NCBI GenBank assembly: GCA_965612735.1
Contig: CBFDSV010000005.1
Span: 866 to 64,865 of the forward strand
Reading direction: 5' to 3'
Origin: an uncultured bacterium
Lineage (GTDB): Bacteria > Hydrothermota > UBA3072 > B12-G15
Length of the DNA stretch: 64,000 bases
Part shown: positions 1-15,098 of the stretch, piece after piece
Numbering within the stretch: the first letter of the stretch is position 1
How the letters are laid out: every line of letters starts with the position of its first letter
Program-made: the position numbers and the translations under genes
Notes under the pieces: model-generated
Told to the model about the DNA's origin: nothing
What the model saw: the letters and a program-made list of their open reading frames with translations, nothing else
Databases searched by the model: none

Positions 1-2673
1 GTGACCGGTGAAGTTCTTGATGGCTGGCCAACAATGAGGACGACCTCCGGGTATGTGAAGGGGATGGTCTTCCCATCTGTTGGAAGCGACCCGCTTTCTG
101 AAGTCCCAATGGCGAATGAGTATATCTGGGTTGGTGGATATGCCACAACAACAAACTCCAGTGGGTATTATACTTCTTCCTATACAGGCACTGTTGAATC
201 CTATTTACGAGGACCCTATGTGAATGCACAGAATGAGGACTATTCAGAGGCATACTATTCAACAAGTTCCTCAAGCATGGATTATTCCCTCTCACAGGTG
301 AGTTACTCCTGGATAAACACCAGCACATCTACGGGTATAACAGGGGATGACCAGAGCAAGGTATTCACTCTCCCATTCTCATTCAACTTCTATGGAACCA
401 CATACAACAGTGTCTATGTATGCAGCAATGGTTTCTTGAGTTTCACTTCCAATTCAACATCATACAGACCAGCAGACATACCGAACACAGGCACACCCAA
501 TGCACTGATTGCACCATTCTGGAGAGACCTGACCCCTGATGCAAGTGGAACAATCACCTATACAAGCACAAGCAGTTATTTTGTTGTCACATGGAACAAT
601 GTTAAGAACTACTCCAATTCAAGCAGGCAGACATTCCAGGTTATACTCTATTCAAATGGTGAGATTGTGTTCCAGTACAAAACAGTATCCAATGATGTAA
701 CTACCTCCATTGGTATTGAAAACCAGGATGGAAGTGGTGGAAAGACTGCAAGTTTTCCATCAAACTATACTGCCTACAAGTTTACACCTGTTGGTGGCTC
801 CTCAGGGAACACCTCCTGGACATGGGCATACTCAACAACCAACACCCATGTGGATGAGGTGAATGTATTCTACCATGTGAACTACATCCATGACTATTAC
901 AAGAATACCAGAGGATACAGTGGAATGGATTATCAGATGAAGGCAACTGTCCACTATGGAACAAACTATGCAAATGCCTTTTATTCACAGAGTGACAAGA
1001 ATATATACTTTGGAGATGGTGATGGTTCAAACCTTTTACAGACCTCAAGGGCATGCGATGTTATCTATCATGAATACACGCATGGTGTAACAGACCATGT
1101 TTACAGGGTTGACACTGGCAACAGCAGTGCCCTTCCTTATACCGGTCAGAGCGGTGCAATTGATGAGGCACTCTCTGATTACTTCCCTGCAAGTGTAACC
1201 AATGACCCCAACATGGGTGAATGGGTTATGGCACAGCAATATCAGAGGAATCTTGAAGACCTCTATGTTTATCCAGACGACTGGGCAGGAGAGGTACATG
1301 ACGATTCAAGGATTATATCTGGTGCATTCTGGGATATAAGGAAGGCAGTTGGACAATCAATAGCAGATAAACTCATCTTTGAGGCAGAATTCTATTATCC
1401 TGAGGACTTCCTTGAATTCAGGAATGCAGTAATACAGGTTGACCAGAATCTTTACAATGGCTCCCATGTGGATGCAATAAAGAGCGCCTTTGCAAGGCAC
1501 GGTATAGGTGATACAGGAGGAGGTGGGACAACATCTGCCTATGAGATGACCAGTACCACATACTCCTGGATAAACACCAGCACATCCACGGGCATAACAG
1601 GGGATGACCAGAGCAAGGCATTCACACTCCCATTCTCATTCAACTTCTATGGAACCACATACAACAGTGTCTATGTATGCAGCAATGGTTTCTTGAGTTT
1701 CACTTCCAATTCAACATCATACAGACCAGCAGACATACCGAACACAGGCACACCCAATGCACTGATTGCACCATTCTGGAGAGACCTGACCCCTGATGCA
1801 AGTGGAACAATCACCTATACAAGCACAAGCAGTTATTTTGTTGTCACATGGAACAATGTTAAGAACTACTCCAATTCAAGCAGGCAGACATTCCAGGTTA
1901 TACTCTATTCAAATGGTGAGATTGTGTTCCAGTACAAAACAGTATCCAATGATGTAACAACCTCCATTGGTATTGAAAACCAGGATGGAAGTGATGGTGT
2001 GAAGTATGCATACTCATCCTCTGCCCCATCTGATTACAGTGCCATTAAGTTTACACCTGTTGACAGCACAGGTGGTGGTGGTTCTTATGTATGGACAGAG
2101 GTAACATACAACATATCCTCTCCTCACTATTACGAGAATAACTACGACAACACCTGGACAATCACCCATAATGGAGCATTAAAGATGGCAGTACACTTCT
2201 CCCAGTTTGACACAGAATCGGGTTATGACTTTGTTTACATATACGACGCAGACTACAACCAGGCTGCAAGGTATGATGGGAACAGGGGCGCATTCTGGTC
2301 AACTGATGTTGACGGAGATGTAATACGGGTAAGGCTTCAAACAGATTACAGTGTAACAAGGTATGGTTTTGATATTGACAAGTATGCATGGTATGGGAGT
2401 GGAAAGGCGGGGATTGTTGACCTCACAGGAAGACAATCTTTTGAGGTTGCCACAACACTTATAAAATCTGAAATCCCTTACTCATACAGGTTGAAATCAA
2501 ATGCTGAAATAACTGTTTTCAACATTGCGGGAAGGCTCATGCTTCATACAACCCTCACCCCTGGTGAAGGTAGTGGTTTGCTCAGGATACCACATGCCAG
2601 ACCTGGTGTTTACTTTGTTAAGGTGAAGGGTAAAGGACTGGATAAATCCTTCAAGATTGTTAAAATAAAATGA
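1..2673 (+). CDS. Secreted M4 (thermolysin-like) zinc metallopeptidase with a duplicated N-terminal/propeptide-like domain, a CUB-like domain and a T9SS C-terminal sorting domain. Probably 5' partial: the ORF begins at the window edge with a GTG and has no signal peptide.
   Basis: Thermolysin-like blocks are readable directly: YDYYKN, FGDGDG, HEYTHGVTD (HExxH) and GAIDEALSD about 20 aa later (third zinc ligand Glu). The C-terminal roughly 70 aa (ITVFNIAGRLM...PGVYFVKVKG...KIVKIK) resembles a type-A T9SS CTD. A 144-aa segment is repeated on both sides of the protease domain. Confidence 0.75.
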   Translation: MTGEVLDGWPTMRTTSGYVKGMVFPSVGSDPLSEVPMANEYIWVGGYATTTNSSGYYTSSYTGTVESYLRGPYVNAQNEDYSEAYYSTSSSSMDYSLSQVSYSWINTSTSTGITGDDQSKVFTLPFSFNFYGTTYNSVYVCSNGFLSFTSNSTSYRPADIPNTGTPNALIAPFWRDLTPDASGTITYTSTSSYFVVTWNNVKNYSNSSRQTFQVILYSNGEIVFQYKTVSNDVTTSIGIENQDGSGGKTASFPSNYTAYKFTPVGGSSGNTSWTWAYSTTNTHVDEVNVFYHVNYIHDYYKNTRGYSGMDYQMKATVHYGTNYANAFYSQSDKNIYFGDGDGSNLLQTSRACDVIYHEYTHGVTDHVYRVDTGNSSALPYTGQSGAIDEALSDYFPASVTNDPNMGEWVMAQQYQRNLEDLYVYPDDWAGEVHDDSRIISGAFWDIRKAVGQSIADKLIFEAEFYYPEDFLEFRNAVIQVDQNLYNGSHVDAIKSAFARHGIGDTGGGGTTSAYEMTSTTYSWINTSTSTGITGDDQSKAFTLPFSFNFYGTTYNSVYVCSNGFLSFTSNSTSYRPADIPNTGTPNALIAPFWRDLTPDASGTITYTSTSSYFVVTWNNVKNYSNSSRQTFQVILYSNGEIVFQYKTVSNDVTTSIGIENQDGSDGVKYAYSSSAPSDYSAIKFTPVDSTGGGGSYVWTEVTYNISSPHYYENNYDNTWTITHNGALKMAVHFSQFDTESGYDFVYIYDADYNQAARYDGNRGAFWSTDVDGDVIRVRLQTDYSVTRYGFDIDKYAWYGSGKAGIVDLTGRQSFEVATTLIKSEIPYSYRLKSNAEITVFNIAGRLMLHTTLTPGEGSGLLRIPHARPGVYFVKVKGKGLDKSFKIVKIK
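304..736 (+). repeat. Copy A of a near-identical 433-bp intragenic direct repeat. Copy B is at 1561..1993, offset 1257 nt (419 codons).
   Basis: Nucleotide alignment of 304..736 against 1561..1993 shows only about 6 mismatches. The encoded 144-aa segments differ at 1-2 residues (K/A at one position). Confidence 0.9.
1561..1993 (+). repeat. Copy B of the intragenic direct repeat.
   Basis: See copy A. About 99% nucleotide identity, which is unusual for an old domain duplication. Confidence 0.9.
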
Positions 2674-5591
2674 ACCTCCTTCTCATATCATTACTTTTGC
2701 TCTCCCCTTTTAACCCTTCAGGCAGGGGAAAGAAGTCATCTTTTTCCCCTGTTCTGATTCAAAGGAAGCCAAACAATTTCAGTGAGGATAAAACCTTCCT
2801 GAACAAGGTTAAAAGATATGGTACGAAGGAAAAATATAGGAAGGAAAATCAGGGTGAGGAAACTTATACAGAGGGTGTGAACTTTACACGAAACCACGGT
2901 ATCTGTGTGGAGACCTACGACCAGACCTATCCCTCCATGGCTGTGAATTCCAAGGGAACAATCTATGCTGCTGTTGATTACTACAATGGAAGCACATACG
3001 AGGTTGATGTATTCGTATCAAGGGACAATGGAGACAACTGGGATTATGCATTCTACCTTTACAGTTCCACCTTTAACTACAGACATCCACACATTGTAAT
3101 AAATCAGGGTGATACCATATACATTTTCTACGAGACGGATGATACACTGGGTTTCCAGTACCTTGAATCACCTGACGGTGAAAAATGGTACAGGAGTTAT
3201 ATATCTTCATGGACTTTTTACCCTGATAGATGCCTTTATCCCAGGGCTGCTGTGAAGGATTCATTCATCTATGTGGCTTTCATGTATGACTATTATGGTG
3301 ATGGGAGTGATTATGATGTGGGTTACCTTTACTCAAAAGACCATGGCAATTCCTGGTATGATTATCATGATAACCTTGCAAACACATCCAGCCATGAACT
3401 CTATCCAGTTGTGGCAATATCTGATTCTGTGGTTGGTATTGCATACCAGTATGAGACTGCCTCTGCTGATTCAGACTGGTATGACATAATGTATGATTAC
3501 GATAAATTTTCAGATTCCTGGACTGAGATTTATGGGATTGCCTCTTATCATGATGATTACTATCCTGACCTTTATGCAGATGGGAATTATATGGTGATTG
3601 CCTGCATGAGGAACTATAACTACCCTGCATCAGACTGGGATATCTGGATGAGAAGGTCTTCCAATGGTGGAACATCATGGGATGGGTTTTCATTCAGACC
3701 AGCCCATTCAGGTTACGACGAGAAGTATCCATCAATCTTCTGCATTGCTGATACAATGTACCTTGTTTATACATTTGATAACAGGAGAATCTGTTATGCA
3801 GATTCCTTTCTGGCAGTTGACACATGGGCTGCTGATACCTGTTCTGAGAAGGATAAGGTTTACCCTGCATTCAGAAATTCAGATATTATCGTGAATTCCA
3901 CACAGAAAATGGTCTCATGGGTGGACACACGGAATGAAGGAAACATCACAAACATAGGTAAGGATATCTACTTCGCCACAGATTATCCCATCACCAAAAG
4001 TTGTGATATAAAATGCTACAAACCACAGGACTGGACAGATTTTCTCATCCCATCCAATGTCAAAGGGACAACAACACCCTCAAACACACTACCAGGTTCA
4101 CCTCCAACAGGTGGAGATTCAACGTACATTGATTTTGCCCTCATTGATGCCTCTCCTGTTGATGCTGAGGATACGATTTACTCCTGTTTATATGTTGATG
4201 ACGCAGAAAAACAATTTTTCTATTCACCACCACTGCCCGCAGGATGGTATGCATATGCCCTTGATTACAGCATCCTTATTATGGGTGGACGGCATACCCT
4301 GAAGGTTGTCCATGATTATACTGATAGGAATACAGAACTTGACGAGGCAAACAACTCATATGGGAAGCAATGGGTTTTCTCTCCCCTTCTTCTCTCTGAT
4401 GACTCTCCAGGTATTTACAAGGCACCACCGTATCCCCAGACAGAGTTCAGTCCACCTGACACATTCAACTGTGATGGATTCTCTGTGATACCAACATTCT
4501 ACTGGGGTTGTGTGGGAATAAGGCCACCAGAGGCTTCAGATTATGACATGAGGATTTATACAGATTATTCAAATTCCACCTCAGGATTCTCAAACTACAT
4601 CACCACATCCAGTGCTGACCAGGGTGGTGTTGATTTTATCATGATTAATGGAAACTACCTGAGTGATTCAACCTTTTACCCTGGTGTTTACAGACTTTCT
4701 GGTGTTGGGGATTACCTGATTGAATGGGATAGAACCGACGGAACTCTGGGTTCATCAGGATGGAATTCTTATGACACACTATATTCAGGACATGTGCTTA
4801 ATGTTTATGATGTTTATCTCTCTTCTGGACAGGTTTACTATGTTGCACTTGAACAGACAGGGAGCAATGAGACCCTTGGATTTGCAGTTTATTCCTCATG
4901 GGATGGAAAGTATATTAAGGCAAGGGGAGACTGGGAATGCTTCAGGGATACAATCACTGGTGGGATAACAAAGGATACTTTATTCACCACTTCAACATCA
5001 GGATGGCATGGAATAGTGGTATGGAACAGTTCTAACTCCTCAAAGGGCGATGGAATATACAGAATCTACATTTCATCCAGTCCTCTATCCATAGCACTGA
5101 GCGATTTCTCAATAATACTTAAAAATGGCTATCCCTATATAGCATGGGGGTCTGACCTCAAGGTGGACGCATGGATAATCACGAAGAAATCAGGAAGGGA
5201 TGAGGAACGCTATGAACTTCCACCTGATGTAAGGCATTTCTATGACCGGATGGTTCAGCCAGGAAACTATACTTATTCACTTTACTATAAGAAAAATGGG
5301 ATGGAGACACTTCTAAAATCAACAAACATCCATGTACCAGCCCCTGAATTCTCTGTAAATCTCATGAACACAATTGTCACAGACCAACTGCTCTTGAGGA
5401 TTGGTGGTCATGGAAAGGCAGACGTGAAAATCTTCGGGATAGATGGCAGGATTTTCTACAGGGGCAGAATTACTGAATCATCACCTGAATTCAAAAAAAT
5501 AAGGTTGAATCTACCCTCTGGTGTATATCTTATCAAGGTATGTTCAGATAAAGGGATTCTGGTAAATAAGAAAATTTTACTTCTGGAGTGA
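2670..5591 (+). CDS. Secreted BNR/sialidase-like repeat protein with a CARDB-like segment and a T9SS C-terminal sorting domain.
   Basis: Signal peptide MNLLLISLLLLSPF. BNR-type SxDxGxxW motifs (SRDNGDNWDY, SKDHGNSWYD, SSNGGTSWDG). A DEANNSY CARDB-like motif. The C-terminus VKIFGIDGRIFYRGRI...SGVYLIKVCSDKG matches a T9SS CTD. The start ATG overlaps the upstream stop (ATGA). Confidence 0.6.
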   Translation: MNLLLISLLLLSPFNPSGRGKKSSFSPVLIQRKPNNFSEDKTFLNKVKRYGTKEKYRKENQGEETYTEGVNFTRNHGICVETYDQTYPSMAVNSKGTIYAAVDYYNGSTYEVDVFVSRDNGDNWDYAFYLYSSTFNYRHPHIVINQGDTIYIFYETDDTLGFQYLESPDGEKWYRSYISSWTFYPDRCLYPRAAVKDSFIYVAFMYDYYGDGSDYDVGYLYSKDHGNSWYDYHDNLANTSSHELYPVVAISDSVVGIAYQYETASADSDWYDIMYDYDKFSDSWTEIYGIASYHDDYYPDLYADGNYMVIACMRNYNYPASDWDIWMRRSSNGGTSWDGFSFRPAHSGYDEKYPSIFCIADTMYLVYTFDNRRICYADSFLAVDTWAADTCSEKDKVYPAFRNSDIIVNSTQKMVSWVDTRNEGNITNIGKDIYFATDYPITKSCDIKCYKPQDWTDFLIPSNVKGTTTPSNTLPGSPPTGGDSTYIDFALIDASPVDAEDTIYSCLYVDDAEKQFFYSPPLPAGWYAYALDYSILIMGGRHTLKVVHDYTDRNTELDEANNSYGKQWVFSPLLLSDDSPGIYKAPPYPQTEFSPPDTFNCDGFSVIPTFYWGCVGIRPPEASDYDMRIYTDYSNSTSGFSNYITTSSADQGGVDFIMINGNYLSDSTFYPGVYRLSGVGDYLIEWDRTDGTLGSSGWNSYDTLYSGHVLNVYDVYLSSGQVYYVALEQTGSNETLGFAVYSSWDGKYIKARGDWECFRDTITGGITKDTLFTTSTSGWHGIVVWNSSNSSKGDGIYRIYISSSPLSIALSDFSIILKNGYPYIAWGSDLKVDAWIITKKSGRDEERYELPPDVRHFYDRMVQPGNYTYSLYYKKNGMETLLKSTNIHVPAPEFSVNLMNTIVTDQLLLRIGGHGKADVKIFGIDGRIFYRGRITESSPEFKKIRLNLPSGVYLIKVCSDKGILVNKKILLLE

Positions 5592-13289: not shown

Positions 13290-15098
13290 ATGAGAAGGTT
13301 TTCAGTGATTTTGGTCTTTTGTTCATTCCTTGTTTTTGGTGCTGTGGATTATCCAGAACAGTTGATGGCTGAAAATCATTATGAAGACTCTGGCAGTGTC
13401 AAGGGTGACTCCCTCAATGTGAGATTTGTTGGCAACTGGCCGTTTGGCCTTTCCTATGCAGTAGCATACGATTCTTTAAGAAGCCTTGCATTTTGTGGTT
13501 CTGGTGGAGGTGTATATATCCTGAATGTATCAGACCCTTCATCTCCTGTTAAGGTATCAGAGGGAATCCACACCAGAAGTCTTGTGTATGGTTTATTTTA
13601 TGATGCTTCTTCAGAGAGGGTCTATATTGCGGATGGTGATGCTGGGCTTGAGATATGGGATGTATCCACACCTTCATCACCTGTAAAACTGGGCTTTTAT
13701 GATACACCTGATCAGGCTCATGGTGTTGCAGTTTCAGGCACGTATGTATATGTCGCGGATGGAGGTTCTGGGCTCCGTGTGATAGATATATCCGACCCTT
13801 CAAATCCTATTGAAGTGGGCTATTATGATACACCTGGTTATGCACGGGGTGTTGCAGTTTCAGGCTCTTATGTATATGTTGCGGATGGCAGTTCTGGGCT
13901 CCGTGTGATAGATATATCCACACCATCAAATCCTTCTGAGGTGGGGTATTATGATACACCTGATTATGCTTATTGTGTTGCATTATCAGGTTCTTATGCA
14001 TATGTTGCAGATGATGATTCAGGACTTTGTGTGATAGATATATCAGACCCATTAAATCCTTCTTTGAAAGGCTCTTATGATACACCTGATCAGGCTCATG
14101 GTGTTGCAGTTTCAGGCACGTATGTATATGTCGCGGATGGAGGTTCTGGGTTCCGTGTGATAGATATATCAGACCCTTCAAACCCTGTTGAAGTGGGCTA
14201 TTATAATACACCTGATGATGCTCATGGTGTTGCAGTTTCAGACTCTTATGCATATGTTGTAGATGGTTGGGATGGTCTTCGTGTTATAGATATATCCGAC
14301 CCATCAAATCCTACAGGAGTGGGCTATTATGTTCCACCTGGTTATGCTTGGGGTGTTGCAGTTTCAGGCTCTTATGTATATGTCGCGGATGGAGGCTCTG
14401 GGCTCCGTGTGATAGATATATCCGACCCTTCAAACCCTGTTGAAGTAGGCTATTATGATACACCTGGTTATGCTTATGATGTTGCATTATCAGGTTCTTA
14501 TGCATATGTTGCAGATGATAATGCTGGGCTCAGTGTTATAGATATATCCGACCCATCAAATCCTAGACGAGTGGGCTATTATTTTACACCTGGTTATGCT
14601 AGGGGTGTTGCAGTTTCGGACTCTTATGCATATGTCGCGGATGGCAGTTCTGGGCTCCGTGTGATAGATATATCCGACCCTTCAAATCCTTTTGAAGTGG
14701 GCTATTATGATACACCTTATTCGGGTAATAATGTTGCAGTTTCAGGCGCTTATGCATATGTTGCAGATGGCCGTAGCGGGCTCCAGATTTATGAAAATCT
14801 CCTTTTTGGTATTGGTGATTCTCAGGATGAGATTTCTCTTCCTGTTTTCCGACTCTCACAGAATCCAGTTGTTTGTGATTATATAGAAATTGAATTGAGT
14901 GTTGAACAAAAGGATGGGTATGATTTAAACCTCTATAATCTTCTCGGGCAGAAGGTAAAAACCTTTACCATAAGTGGCCTATCTGCTGGCAAGCATAAGA
15001 TAAGACTGGAAACAAAAGGTCTAACAGGTGGTGTGTATTTTCTGAGAATGGGAGATAAAGAGAGTCAACAGTGTGTTAAGGTTACAATTATGAAATGA
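13290..15098 (+). CDS. Secreted LVIVD-repeat protein (about 11 tandem 40-aa repeats) with a T9SS C-terminal sorting domain.
   Basis: Signal peptide. Repeats of the form [42 protein letters not shown] (LVIVD/PF08309-like). C-terminal [21 protein letters not shown]. Nucleotide repeat units of about 120 bp, several nearly identical. Confidence 0.7.
   Translation: [602 protein letters not shown]

Follow-up and report, generated by a model that had tools for sequence, protein, structure and literature searches.

Two near-identical NIDO modules bracket the active site of a predicted T9SS-secreted M4 protease in an uncultured WOR-3 bacterium and are probably homogenized by intragenic gene conversion

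Repeats within a gene can evolve in concert through gene conversion or unequal recombination, as is illustrated by the repeat domains of protein A, the alpha C/Rib family and other surface proteins of Gram-positive bacteria. Intragenic homogenization has also been reported for spidroins (PMC3933166). A second body of work concerns the loss of sequences lying between direct repeats: in a Deinococcus radiodurans assay, 438-bp direct repeats placed 1,479 bp apart underwent deletion at a frequency of 6.5e-4, independently of RecA, and mismatches reduced this frequency (PMC4627823). The gene described here, whose host is an uncultured bacterium of candidate division WOR-3, resembles the known cases of intragenic concerted evolution in that its modules resemble each other more within one genome than across species, synonymous sites included, and in that recombination appears to change module number in frame. 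However, protein A, the alpha C/Rib family and the spidroins are head-to-tail arrays, whereas the two modules of the WOR-3 protease lie 824 nt apart (the spacer between their repeat cores) and bracket a catalytic region, one copy being nested in the catalytic domain itself, so that a crossover would cost the enzyme its active site instead of a spare repeat. The similarity to the D. radiodurans assay lies in the size of the repeats (433-505 bp), in the comparable spacer and in the precise loss of one repeat plus the spacer. That substrate was, however, engineered and its deletion frequency measured, while the present one is natural and its products are known from metagenome contigs only. The case clearly illustrates recombination processes that are already known, and is not a new kind of system.

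At the protein level, the gene product shares with M4 enzymes (thermolysin, 1NPC, aureolysin and Mcp02) the HExxH motif with a downstream glutamate, the two-subdomain core, an FTP/PepSY-type propeptide and the possession of extra beta domains, presumed to aid substrate binding. Vibriolysin-type M4 enzymes carry C-terminal PPC/PKD extensions. Unlike these enzymes, the WOR-3 protein has NIDO accessory modules, the first placed within an N-terminal loop of the protease and the second C-terminal, followed by a CUB domain and a T9SS sorting domain; sequence and structure searches of the PDB found no solved structure with this NIDO-M4-NIDO-CUB-T9SS arrangement. A Pfam NIDO match (83 bits) is what it has in common with the animal NIDO proteins nidogen, MUC4, alpha-tectorin and SNED1, from which it differs in being bacterial and joined to a protease, and the best match in each copy covers only the first 54 of the 186 profile positions.

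The window (the whole 64-kb stretch of DNA that was analyzed, 64,000 nt) contains the 3' part of the gene as an ORF open at the left edge, whose product corresponds exactly to the last 890 residues of P0129, a protein of 1116 aa. The first 226 codons, corresponding to the signal peptide and an FTP/PepSY-like propeptide, fall beyond that edge, and FTP and PepSY profiles match the N-terminal 318 aa of P0129 weakly (E about 0.01-0.02). The order of domains is propeptide, M4 (interrupted near its N-terminus by a NIDO module), second NIDO, CUB and T9SS sorting domain. The features of this gene, with the basis for each, are the following.

1..2673, plus strand: 3' part of the protease gene, 2673 nt including the stop codon, out of 1116 codons (ORF list; exact suffix of P0129; Pfam).
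1..276, plus strand: beta-rich segment before the first NIDO module, ending in SYLRGPYVNAQNEDYSEAYYSTSSSS, equivalent to the N-terminal protease part of plain M4 relatives (in silico excision of NIDO_N).
277..792, plus strand: NIDO_N, about 172 aa, in a loop of the M4 N-terminal part (Pfam PF06119; phmmer boundaries; AlphaFold2 model).
304..736, plus strand: repeat core copy 1, the putative gene-conversion tract (428 of 433 nt equal to 1561-1993).
737..792, plus strand: N-type module tail, GGKTASFPSNYTAYKFTPV, not homogenized, four codons shorter than the C-type (sequence comparison of the copies).
793..1521, plus strand: rest of the M4 catalytic domain, which includes HEYTH (1069-1083) and, within GAIDEALSD, the glutamate codon at 1165-1167 (Pfam and PDB matches).
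1534..2061, plus strand: NIDO_C, directly after the M4 helical subdomain (Pfam, phmmer).
1561..1993, plus strand: repeat core copy 2, near-identical partner of 304-736.
1994..2061, plus strand: C-type tail, DGVKYAYSSSAPSDYSAIKFTPV, with a 12-nt insertion relative to the N-type tail (comparison of the copies).
2098..2376, plus strand: CUB domain, aa 700-792 (Pfam PF00431, 33.3 bits against a cut-off of 21.4).
2482..2664, plus strand: T9SS type A C-terminal sorting domain, aa 828-888 of 890 (TIGR04183, 34.3 bits against a cut-off of 23).

Pfam recognized NIDO, Peptidase_M4, Peptidase_M4_C and CUB in the 890-aa product. Both M4 subdomains were matched (PF01447 with 60 bits, cut-off 22.4, and PF02868 with 48.2 bits, cut-off 24.4), the Peptidase_M4 match spanning aa 273-365 and that of Peptidase_M4_C aa 376-502, and the HEYTH motif is accompanied by the downstream glutamate ligand in GAIDEALSD. 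The PDB sequence matches were thermolysin, neutral protease and aureolysin (E 1e-14 to 8e-21). The original prediction of an M4 catalytic domain with an HExxH motif was thus confirmed, as was that of a T9SS sorting domain, for which TIGR04183 provides the above-threshold match (PF18962 scored 17.7 bits, under its threshold of 27). On these grounds the product is predicted to be a surface-directed, T9SS-secreted, thermolysin-type (M4) protease.

The repeated module, a stretch of 144 aa in the original prediction, for which a propeptide/PepSY/FTP-like or an adhesin identity had been raised, turned out in profile searches to be a NIDO (nidogen-like) domain, PF06119, with 83.1 bits for the whole protein (cut-off 25) in four stretches over the two copies. 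The same module does stand on both sides of the HExxH region, as had been stated, Pfam NIDO being present in both. The AlphaFold2 model of NIDO_N is all-beta (pLDDT 92.3); a structure search with this model against the PDB gave nothing significant, and the module sequence had zero matches in the PDB. Titles returned by a literature search on bacterial NIDO domains dealt with animal proteins or unrelated topics. NIDO domains turned out to be common as accessory modules of secreted proteases in WOR-3 and neighboring candidate phyla; in the present protein they may serve to bind substrate or matrix.

The first copy had been placed N-terminal to the catalytic domain. It does precede HExxH, but sits inside a loop of the protease's N-terminal part, where it interrupts the catalytic domain. 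When the intact protein was compared by BLASTP with the plain relative P0063, two separate alignments were obtained, whereas a construct from which NIDO_N had been excised gave one alignment across the junction with P0063 and with P0059. After the excision, the Pfam M4 match started at profile position 34 instead of 54, and the alignment to 1NPC also spanned the junction. The interruption is a variant architecture and no ground for excluding the protein from M4. A full-length model (890 aa, 13-sequence alignment) reached pLDDT 64 and pTM 0.31, values too poor for judging domain packing or the nested position.

Comparison at an offset of 1257 nt, together with a repeat search, gave direct repeats at 304-736 and 1561-1993 that are identical at 428 of 433 nt (98.85%). 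The two near-identical copies therefore exist where they had been predicted, although the mismatches are five (330, 336, 362, 369 and 702) and not about six. Four are silent, at third codon positions, and the fifth replaces V with A; the longest mismatch-free run, 370-701, has 332 nt. The offset equals 419 codons and both copies are in the frame of the ORF, again as anticipated. There is an abrupt loss of identity at 303/304 and 736/737, the flanks agreeing at about 30% at the same offset, while a diverged domain homology persists 3' of the core (757-793 versus 2026-2062, 78%, with a 12-nt indel). Since blastn and tblastn gave no further match to the NIDO module anywhere in the 64-kb window, and the sole other repeat family of at least 40 nt is an unrelated LVIVD array, chance can be excluded as the origin of the repeat. 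The window has no inverted repeats of at least 40 nt, and its Rfam scan gave zero matches. A short-read consensus could still overstate the exact identity of the two cores.

How old the arrangement is can be judged from the relatives, all of the sequences compared being metagenome assemblies. NIDO was present at both positions in every full-length relative, at identities down to 52%: in seven versions of 1116 aa, in one of 1120 aa, and in more distant proteins with 83%, 66% and 52-58% identity, the two-copy versions being drawn from JGI, ENA, NCBI and Logan assemblies. Three members of a Hydrothermales-like clade (P0007, P0010 and P0011) show only 54-56% identity between N and C copies of the same protein, versus 72-75% among their N copies and 66-75% among their C copies. 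For the wider clade (P0007-P0011 plus P0013), a neighbor-joining tree has the N copies monophyletic with 99% and the C copies with 100% bootstrap. The number of copies varies in the family (three in P0005, five in P0012), and a scan of a genome collection retrieved only distant M4 relatives, from Planctomycetia and Bacteroidota. From these comparisons, the NIDO-M4-NIDO architecture is ancestral to the family, and the distant relatives serve as a built-in control, having the same architecture without homogenization.

In other lineages, that of the window included, the copies group by genome. For P0003, bootstrap 100 joins the N copy to the C copy, and the same holds for P0006, while P0129, P0126 and P0002 together contribute six copies that all fall in a single clade, also at 100. 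The dS between copies is 0.043 in the window, 0.089 in P0001, 0.106 in P0003 and 0.59 in P0002, while orthologue dS ranges from 0.95 to 1.8. The tails behave differently: their dS between copies is 0.9-2 in the window, P0001 and P0003 (about 1.4 in the window), and a position-specific indel of 3-4 residues separates N-type from C-type tails in the window, P0001-P0003, P0006, P0007, P0010 and P0011, the N-type tail lacking the 3-4 residues being found also in copy N1 of P0005. The contig L004 (P0003) has a repeat of its own, 98% identical over 300 nt. The copies are, therefore, closer within a genome than between genomes, even though the duplication is older than the split. A paralogue dS far under that of orthologues, the grouping of copies by genome in three lineages and the position-specific tails all argue for gene conversion, which was one of the two options that the original prediction had offered ("very recent duplication or ongoing gene conversion"); the other is rejected in view of the ancestral two-NIDO architecture. 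Selection at the protein level was considered as the cause of the identity and ruled out, because synonymous sites are homogenized too. In the mechanism that we propose, inferred from sequence patterns, homologous recombination would repeatedly copy one NIDO core onto the other, in the window lineage and independently in at least two others, keeping the 433-nt cores about 99% identical, synonymous sites included, while their 3' tails stay diverged. The gene would thus be a natural example of conversion acting on two non-adjacent domains of one bacterial gene. An old two-NIDO protease, subject to intragenic gene conversion and prone to in-frame deletion, is the best overall explanation and, in our opinion, probably the correct one.

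Variation among strains fits this proposal. The tract measures 433 nt or 505 nt depending on the strain (505 in L021 and L013), and the N copies of P0126/L021 and of L013, two independent assemblies, carry a derived C-type tail, as if conversion in this strain group had run 72 nt further. The N core of L013 differs at 1 of 433 nt from the C core of L021 and at 13 from its N core, the flanks being 98.9% identical, a pattern that points to a discrete conversion event. Among strains grouped in one 90%-identity cluster, both copies carry strain-specific substitutions; for instance, a D.RA motif is found in the C copy of P0001 and P0121 and in the N copy of P0122 and P0127. At least six amino acid positions (core 20, 50, 53, 76-77, 87 and 117-118) carry matching alleles in the two copies across strains, an observation to be read bearing in mind that short-read assemblers can mis-phase variants in a repeat longer than k. 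Contig names (k141_, NODE_) and breaks at k-1 suggest that short reads were used, and, because the 332-nt identical run exceeds any short-read k-mer, assemblers can collapse or mis-phase differences between the copies, which could inflate their identity and mimic "shared polymorphism".

It had also been predicted that recombination between the copies would excise 419 codons in frame while keeping the T9SS domain, and two public contigs encode exactly this 697-aa product: P0004 (L001, from JGI) and P0134 (L020, from ENA). The two lineages are 94.8% identical, and the contigs, judging by their names, come from two pipelines. L020, with a k141-style name, is a 19.2-kb contig that runs through a single NIDO copy (44.2 bits in P0134); L001 has 3086 bp and ends 11 nt past the stop codon. 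According to the proposed mechanism, homology of the NIDO cores would lead to repeat-mediated deletion, by crossover or single-strand annealing, removing 419 (or 423) codons in frame and leaving a predicted product made of propeptide, one hybrid NIDO, CUB and sorting domain, from which the zinc site is gone. The homology would hence make the active site easy to lose, a single event turning the protease into a predicted export-competent binding protein.

These two contigs could, however, be assembly mis-joins, produced by a single pass through the repeat that skipped the catalytic loop, in which case all genomes would be two-copy. The deletion is exactly of the kind that repeat collapse yields, and L001 is short. 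Furthermore, L015 and L016, both 99.7% identical to L001, respectively end 126 nt into the repeat (k-1 for k=127) and begin inside it; these breaks show a branched graph, hence two copies, in sister samples of the L001 strain, so that L001 may be a skipped loop. Many other contigs of the gene break in the repeats as well (P0121, P0124, P0131 and P0132). L020, in turn, is nearly identical to the full-length L021 in the retained gene parts, with only eight substitutions, for which dN/dS is uninformative; its deletion is either very recent or artefactual. Against a mis-join stand the appearance of the product in two lineages and two pipelines and the length over which L020 crosses the single copy. 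Unitig-based assemblers, e.g., MEGAHIT, are not known to remove a loop of equal depth, so that in the L020 sample the catalytic segment would need to be scarce or missing. Moreover, repeats comparable in length and distance recombined to give deletions at frequencies of about 1e-4 to 1e-3 in a model bacterium (PMC4627823), so deletion variants must arise. Decay of the upstream gene in L001 was considered as proof of a genuine deletion and dropped, given that the full-length L013 and L021 share it. All in all, a mis-join is a real possibility, albeit one to which we give somewhat less than even weight, and we infer that the deletion contigs reflect real genomes. Whatever their origin, such repeats break or mislead short-read metagenome assembly, and domain-loss "variants" in protein catalogues need checks at the read level.

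Beyond conversion and proneness to deletion, the identity of the cores might be selected as a programmed pop-out switch, replacing the protease with a non-catalytic NIDO-CUB surface protein at high frequency, e.g., as bet-hedging or public-good loss. The in-frame deletion that keeps the secretion signals, the deletion alleles found in two lineages with no visible decay and the recurrence of homogenization in several lineages would suit this idea. However, to judge from the direct-repeat geometry, a cell that had undergone the deletion could not reverse it; those ORFs that were annotated revealed no recombinase, invertible element or regulatory feature; long, close repeats would be expected to convert recurrently without selection; the Hydrothermales-like clade keeps the same architecture without homogenization; and the deletion alleles may be artefacts. 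The on/off switch raised by the original prediction consequently receives no support, the deletion being one-way and nothing pointing to regulation or reversibility, and we consider such a selected program unlikely. Equally doubtful is the broader notion that the NIDO cores are kept identical because they are useful, as a built-in cassette from which recombination would excise the catalytic core time and again. Were it true, a fraction of the population would bear a secreted non-catalytic NIDO-CUB protein, acting as adhesin, decoy or public-good non-producer, and the deletion alleles of the two lineages would represent the process caught in nature.

The preferred reading, conversion between old copies, also has to be weighed against explanations that deny the age or the existence of one of them. 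According to the first, the near-identity would stem from a very recent, tandem-like duplication of NIDO in the window lineage, as the 98.85% core identity, the sharp boundaries and the variable copy number (P0005, P0012) might suggest. This is very improbable: both positions are filled in every full-length relative, copies in the Hydrothermales-like clade are orthologous by position, the tails are synonymously saturated and share position-specific indels with distant species, and the lineages of P0003 and P0006 show the same within-gene similarity. Even less credible is that the window owes its second copy to an assembly expansion of a gene with one true NIDO, the artefact contemplated in the original prediction. 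The repeat does exceed short-read length, but at least ten independent assemblies, across JGI, ENA, NCBI and Logan, show both copies, and these have unique, diverged flanks and tails, which excludes such an expansion for practical purposes. Finally, the chance that the pair constitutes the template and variable repeats of a diversity-generating retroelement is negligible, for although copy 1 has T at each of the five window mismatches (A on the other strand), four of these fall at silent third codon positions, the 12-14 mismatches counted in L002 and L021 affect every base, go both ways and are thus not confined to template adenines, and both repeats are coding domains conserved across the family.

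Immediately downstream of the protease, and outside the repeat, lies one further gene.

2670..5591, plus strand: gene for a 973-aa T9SS-CTD protein, whose ATG overlaps the protease stop codon.

Because of this overlap, both genes are probably co-transcribed, and the same downstream neighbor is found in L002, L003, L020 and L021.

The reading frame spanning positions 1..2673, which exceeds the left edge of the window, is identical to the last 890 residues of P0129, a protein of 1116 residues encoded on a 73.5-kb contig and sharing a 90%-identity cluster with P0121, whose NCBI name is candidate division WOR-3 bacterium. Both copies of the repeat are in this frame, whose features are as follows:

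304-736, + strand: repeat copy 1 (direct repeat, offset 1257 nt), in the first NIDO module (N copy)
1561-1993, + strand: repeat copy 2 (direct repeat, offset 1257 nt), in the second NIDO module (C copy)
Peptidase_M4 and Peptidase_M4_C (Pfam), with HEYTH at nt 1069-1083
NIDO, two copies (Pfam PF06119, 83 bits)
CUB (Pfam), in 1..2673
T9SS type A sorting domain (NCBIfam), in 1..2673

These domain matches show the repeated module to be a nidogen-like domain, and not the propeptide/PepSY/FTP-like unit that had been considered; FTP and PepSY match weakly the N-terminal 318 residues of P0129, 226 of which are outside the window. Direct comparison at offset 1257 bore out the in-frame direct repeat and the near-identity of its copies (98.85%), with five mismatches (330, 336, 362, 369 and 702) in place of the approximately six differences initially counted. 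Four of them are synonymous third-codon changes and one is V to A, and the longest identical run extends from 370 to 701. Outside the repeat, identity at this offset drops to about 30%, the random level. The repeat is genuine and cannot be due to chance. The NIDO domain goes on 3' of it in a diverged form, with a 12-nt indel and a 78% match between 757-793 and 2026-2062 (PSNYTAYKFTPV versus PSDYSAIKFTPV), and no other sequence in the 64-kb window resembles the module. At all five mismatches copy 1 carries T, while copy 2 carries C, C, C, A and A, a one-sided pattern taken as chance because it is absent from the related strains L002 and L021.

The original prediction placed the same module on both sides of the HExxH domain, and this holds, but the N copy is not plainly N-terminal to the catalytic domain. 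When the first module was excised in silico and the resulting construct was compared with plain M4 relatives, P0063 and P0059 yielded a single BLASTP alignment across the junction (...GPYVNAQNEDYSEAYYSTSSSS|GGSSGNTSWTWAYSTTNTHVDEV...), instead of the two separate alignments obtained with the intact protein. Likewise, the Pfam M4 match started at profile position 34, not 54, and the alignment to neutral protease 1NPC crossed the junction. By these alignments, the N copy interrupts a loop in the N-terminal part of the protease and does not lie between propeptide and enzyme; the full-length AlphaFold2 model (pLDDT 64) is too poor to support the nested position.

NIDO modules flank the catalytic region on either side in all full-length relatives, close and distant, drawn from JGI, ENA, NCBI and Logan assemblies (P0001, 98% identical; P0002, 83%; P0003, 66%; P0005, 58%; P0006-P0011, 52-57%), and P0013, truncated at its N-terminus, has the same arrangement. 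In P0007, P0010 and P0011, from a Hydrothermales-like clade, identity between the N and the C copy within a protein is 54-56%, versus 72-75% (N with N) and 66-75% (C with C) between species. In a neighbour-joining tree of the module cores (in the window, the 433-nt repeat; 300 bootstraps), the N copies of P0007-P0011 and P0013, which make up the wider clade, group together (99%) and so do their C copies (100%), which places the duplication before the split of the Hydrothermales-like species. This tree and the old family-wide architecture contradict the very recent duplication that had been proposed, and the presence of both copies in relatives from all these assembly sources excludes assembly expansion. 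NIDO copy number differs within the family: P0005 (L005 1283-5179) has two modules before the catalytic part and one after, the sequence of P0012 (1482 aa) reads as four ahead of that part and one behind it, and L017 1075-3303 has two before, suggesting that unequal recombination also expands these modules.

The core tree pairs the N copy of P0003 with its own C copy at 100%, does likewise for P0006, and gathers the six copies of P0129, P0126 and P0002 into a single clade (100%). The synonymous divergence of the cores, and of the tails just 3' of them, was as follows.

Synonymous divergence of NIDO cores and tails
Window, N core versus C core: 0.043
P0001, N core versus C core: 0.089
P0003, N core versus C core: 0.106
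P0002, N core versus C core: 0.59
P0006, N core versus C core: 0.89
P0007, P0010 and P0011, N core versus C core: 1.25-1.66
Orthologous cores, window versus P0002 or P0003: 0.95-1.8
Sequence immediately 3' of the core (tails; window, P0001 and P0003): 0.9-2

The N copies of the window, P0001-P0003, P0006, P0007, P0010 and P0011 lack 3-4 residues present in the C copies, and the species of P0003 carries a repeat of its own, with 98% identity across 300 nt. Selection at the protein level was discarded as the cause of identity because synonymous sites are near-identical too, and independent duplications cannot account for the conserved position-specific tails. The homogenisation of synonymous sites while such tails persist argues for repeated intragenic gene conversion confined to the core, which would explain both; here the earlier proposal of gene conversion agrees with the divergences and the within-gene pairing. 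Homogenisation is not a general property of repeats within the genes of this genome, since the 126-nt tandem units of a 602-aa T9SS-sorted protein with about ten LVIVD repeats (13290-15098, + strand; PF08309, 426 bits) are mutually ~78-83% identical.

Among members of the 90%-identity cluster, substitutions specific to a strain are present in both copies of one gene: S53A in P0125 and P0130, LT to MR in P0123 and P0126, N50S in P0123, and SN to PS with T87A in P0126, while the D.RA motif belongs to the C copy in P0001 and P0121 and to the N copy in P0122 and P0127. Throughout these comparisons of close strains, the identical runs are longer than any short-read k-mer, so that assemblers may have collapsed or mis-phased variants inside the repeat; how identical the copies are exactly, and to which copy a mid-repeat variant belongs, are thus provisional. 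The comparisons of P0002, P0003 and P0006 are unaffected, because their copies differ enough for assembly to separate them. In the full-length strains L013 and L021, whose flanks are 98.9% identical, the N core of L013 differs at 1/433 nt from the C core of L021 and at 13 from its N core. The N copy of this strain group has a C-type tail including the 12-nt insertion, so that the repeat reaches 505 nt (offset 1269) in two independent assemblies (JGI L013, ENA L021). Since the N copies of P0002 and P0003 keep an N-type tail, the C-type tail in an N copy is derived, by C-to-N conversion with a longer tract.

The best explanation is that homologous recombination repeatedly homogenises the cores of an ancient NIDO pair, which brings with it, as a side effect, a high risk of one-way, in-frame loss of the catalytic core. 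Core-core recombination predicts the loss of 419 codons (1116 - 419 = 697). In keeping with the in-frame excision that had been foreseen, two candidate contigs encode 697-aa proteins of exactly this make-up, in which the N flank is followed by a single NIDO ending in a C-type tail, by CUB and by the sorting domain: P0004 (JGI Ga0190315_1009012, L001, 3086 bp) and P0134 (ENA k141_1320212, L020, 19,248 bp). The two contigs are 94.8% identical. The closest full-length relative of L020 is L021 (P0126, 1120 aa; 1120 - 423 = 697), with flanks 98.3-98.6% identical and eight substitutions in the retained gene parts.

We consider it fairly probable that at least one of these contigs is real. That they are assembly artefacts is favoured by the shortness of L001 and by two contigs 99.7% identical to it, L015, which stops exactly 126 nt into the repeat (k-1, k=127), and L016, which starts inside it, breaks that imply a branched graph, with two copies, for the same strain in sister samples. 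Against this, two lineages have the product, the names of the contigs suggest two pipelines, and L020 runs through the single NIDO copy with 10 kb on one side and 3.2 kb on the other. In a unitig-based assembly, passage through a single copy is not expected if an equal-depth catalytic segment is present. Furthermore, in Deinococcus radiodurans an assay of near-identical geometry, with 438-bp repeats and a 1.5-kb spacer, gave deletion at 6.5e-4 (PMC4627823). In P0133 (JGI, 458 aa, 10.1-kb contig), from an L001-type strain, the contig ends inside the NIDO core and the last ~18 residues look frameshifted (…QTFQVYSIQMVRLCSSTKQYPMM), probably an assembly error at the contig end inside the repeat.

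The reversible on/off switch raised in the original prediction finds no support: a deletion between cores discards the DNA that lies between them, the 64-kb window has no inverted repeats of at least 40 nt, and one whole clade retains the two-NIDO architecture without homogenisation. A DGR pair, which the one-sided T pattern would favour, is ruled out by the four synonymous mismatches of five and by mismatches involving every base in L002 and L021. Repeats within a gene are well known to evolve in concert, and repeat-mediated deletion is well known too; what is unusual here is that the repeats are non-adjacent and bracket a catalytic core, that one is nested inside it, that they are bacterial NIDO domains, on which a literature search found no work, and that natural candidates for the pop-out product exist.

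Several observations concern the module and its genomic surroundings. Clostripain-type (PF03415) T9SS proteins P0020-P0037, one of them named as WOR-3, are 51-72% identical over ~18-27% of the query length, about one NIDO module, and most have a precomputed NIDO hit; the module appears common to different secreted protease families. Directly 5' of the protease gene, Hydrothermales-like relatives have 2-4 Flp/Fap pilin genes and a prepilin peptidase (A24) (L007 1859-2914, L009 1444-2390, L010 1609-2977), with TadE-family genes upstream in L007 and L009, a context unlike that of the window's lineage. L002 5079-6764 encodes a 561-aa FlgD_ig-type secreted protein upstream of the protease, cut in the sister strain group to two short remnants by three deletions without long flanking repeats (compared regions: L001 689-923, L013 1609-1834, L015 2708-2942, L020 9709-9934). 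This decay is common to strains with and without the putative protease deletion, and L021 appears to share it, with a 57-aa ORF at the corresponding position and upstream sequence that matches that of L020. As full-length L013 shares it, and L021 appears to, the decay in L001 is a lineage trait and no sign of an authentic deletion. Downstream, a 973-aa protein (2670-5591, + strand; weak BNR-like and T9SS sorting-domain matches) has a start codon overlapping the protease stop codon (ATGA), and the two genes probably form one operon, since this neighbour is kept 3' of the protease in L002, L003, L020 and L021.
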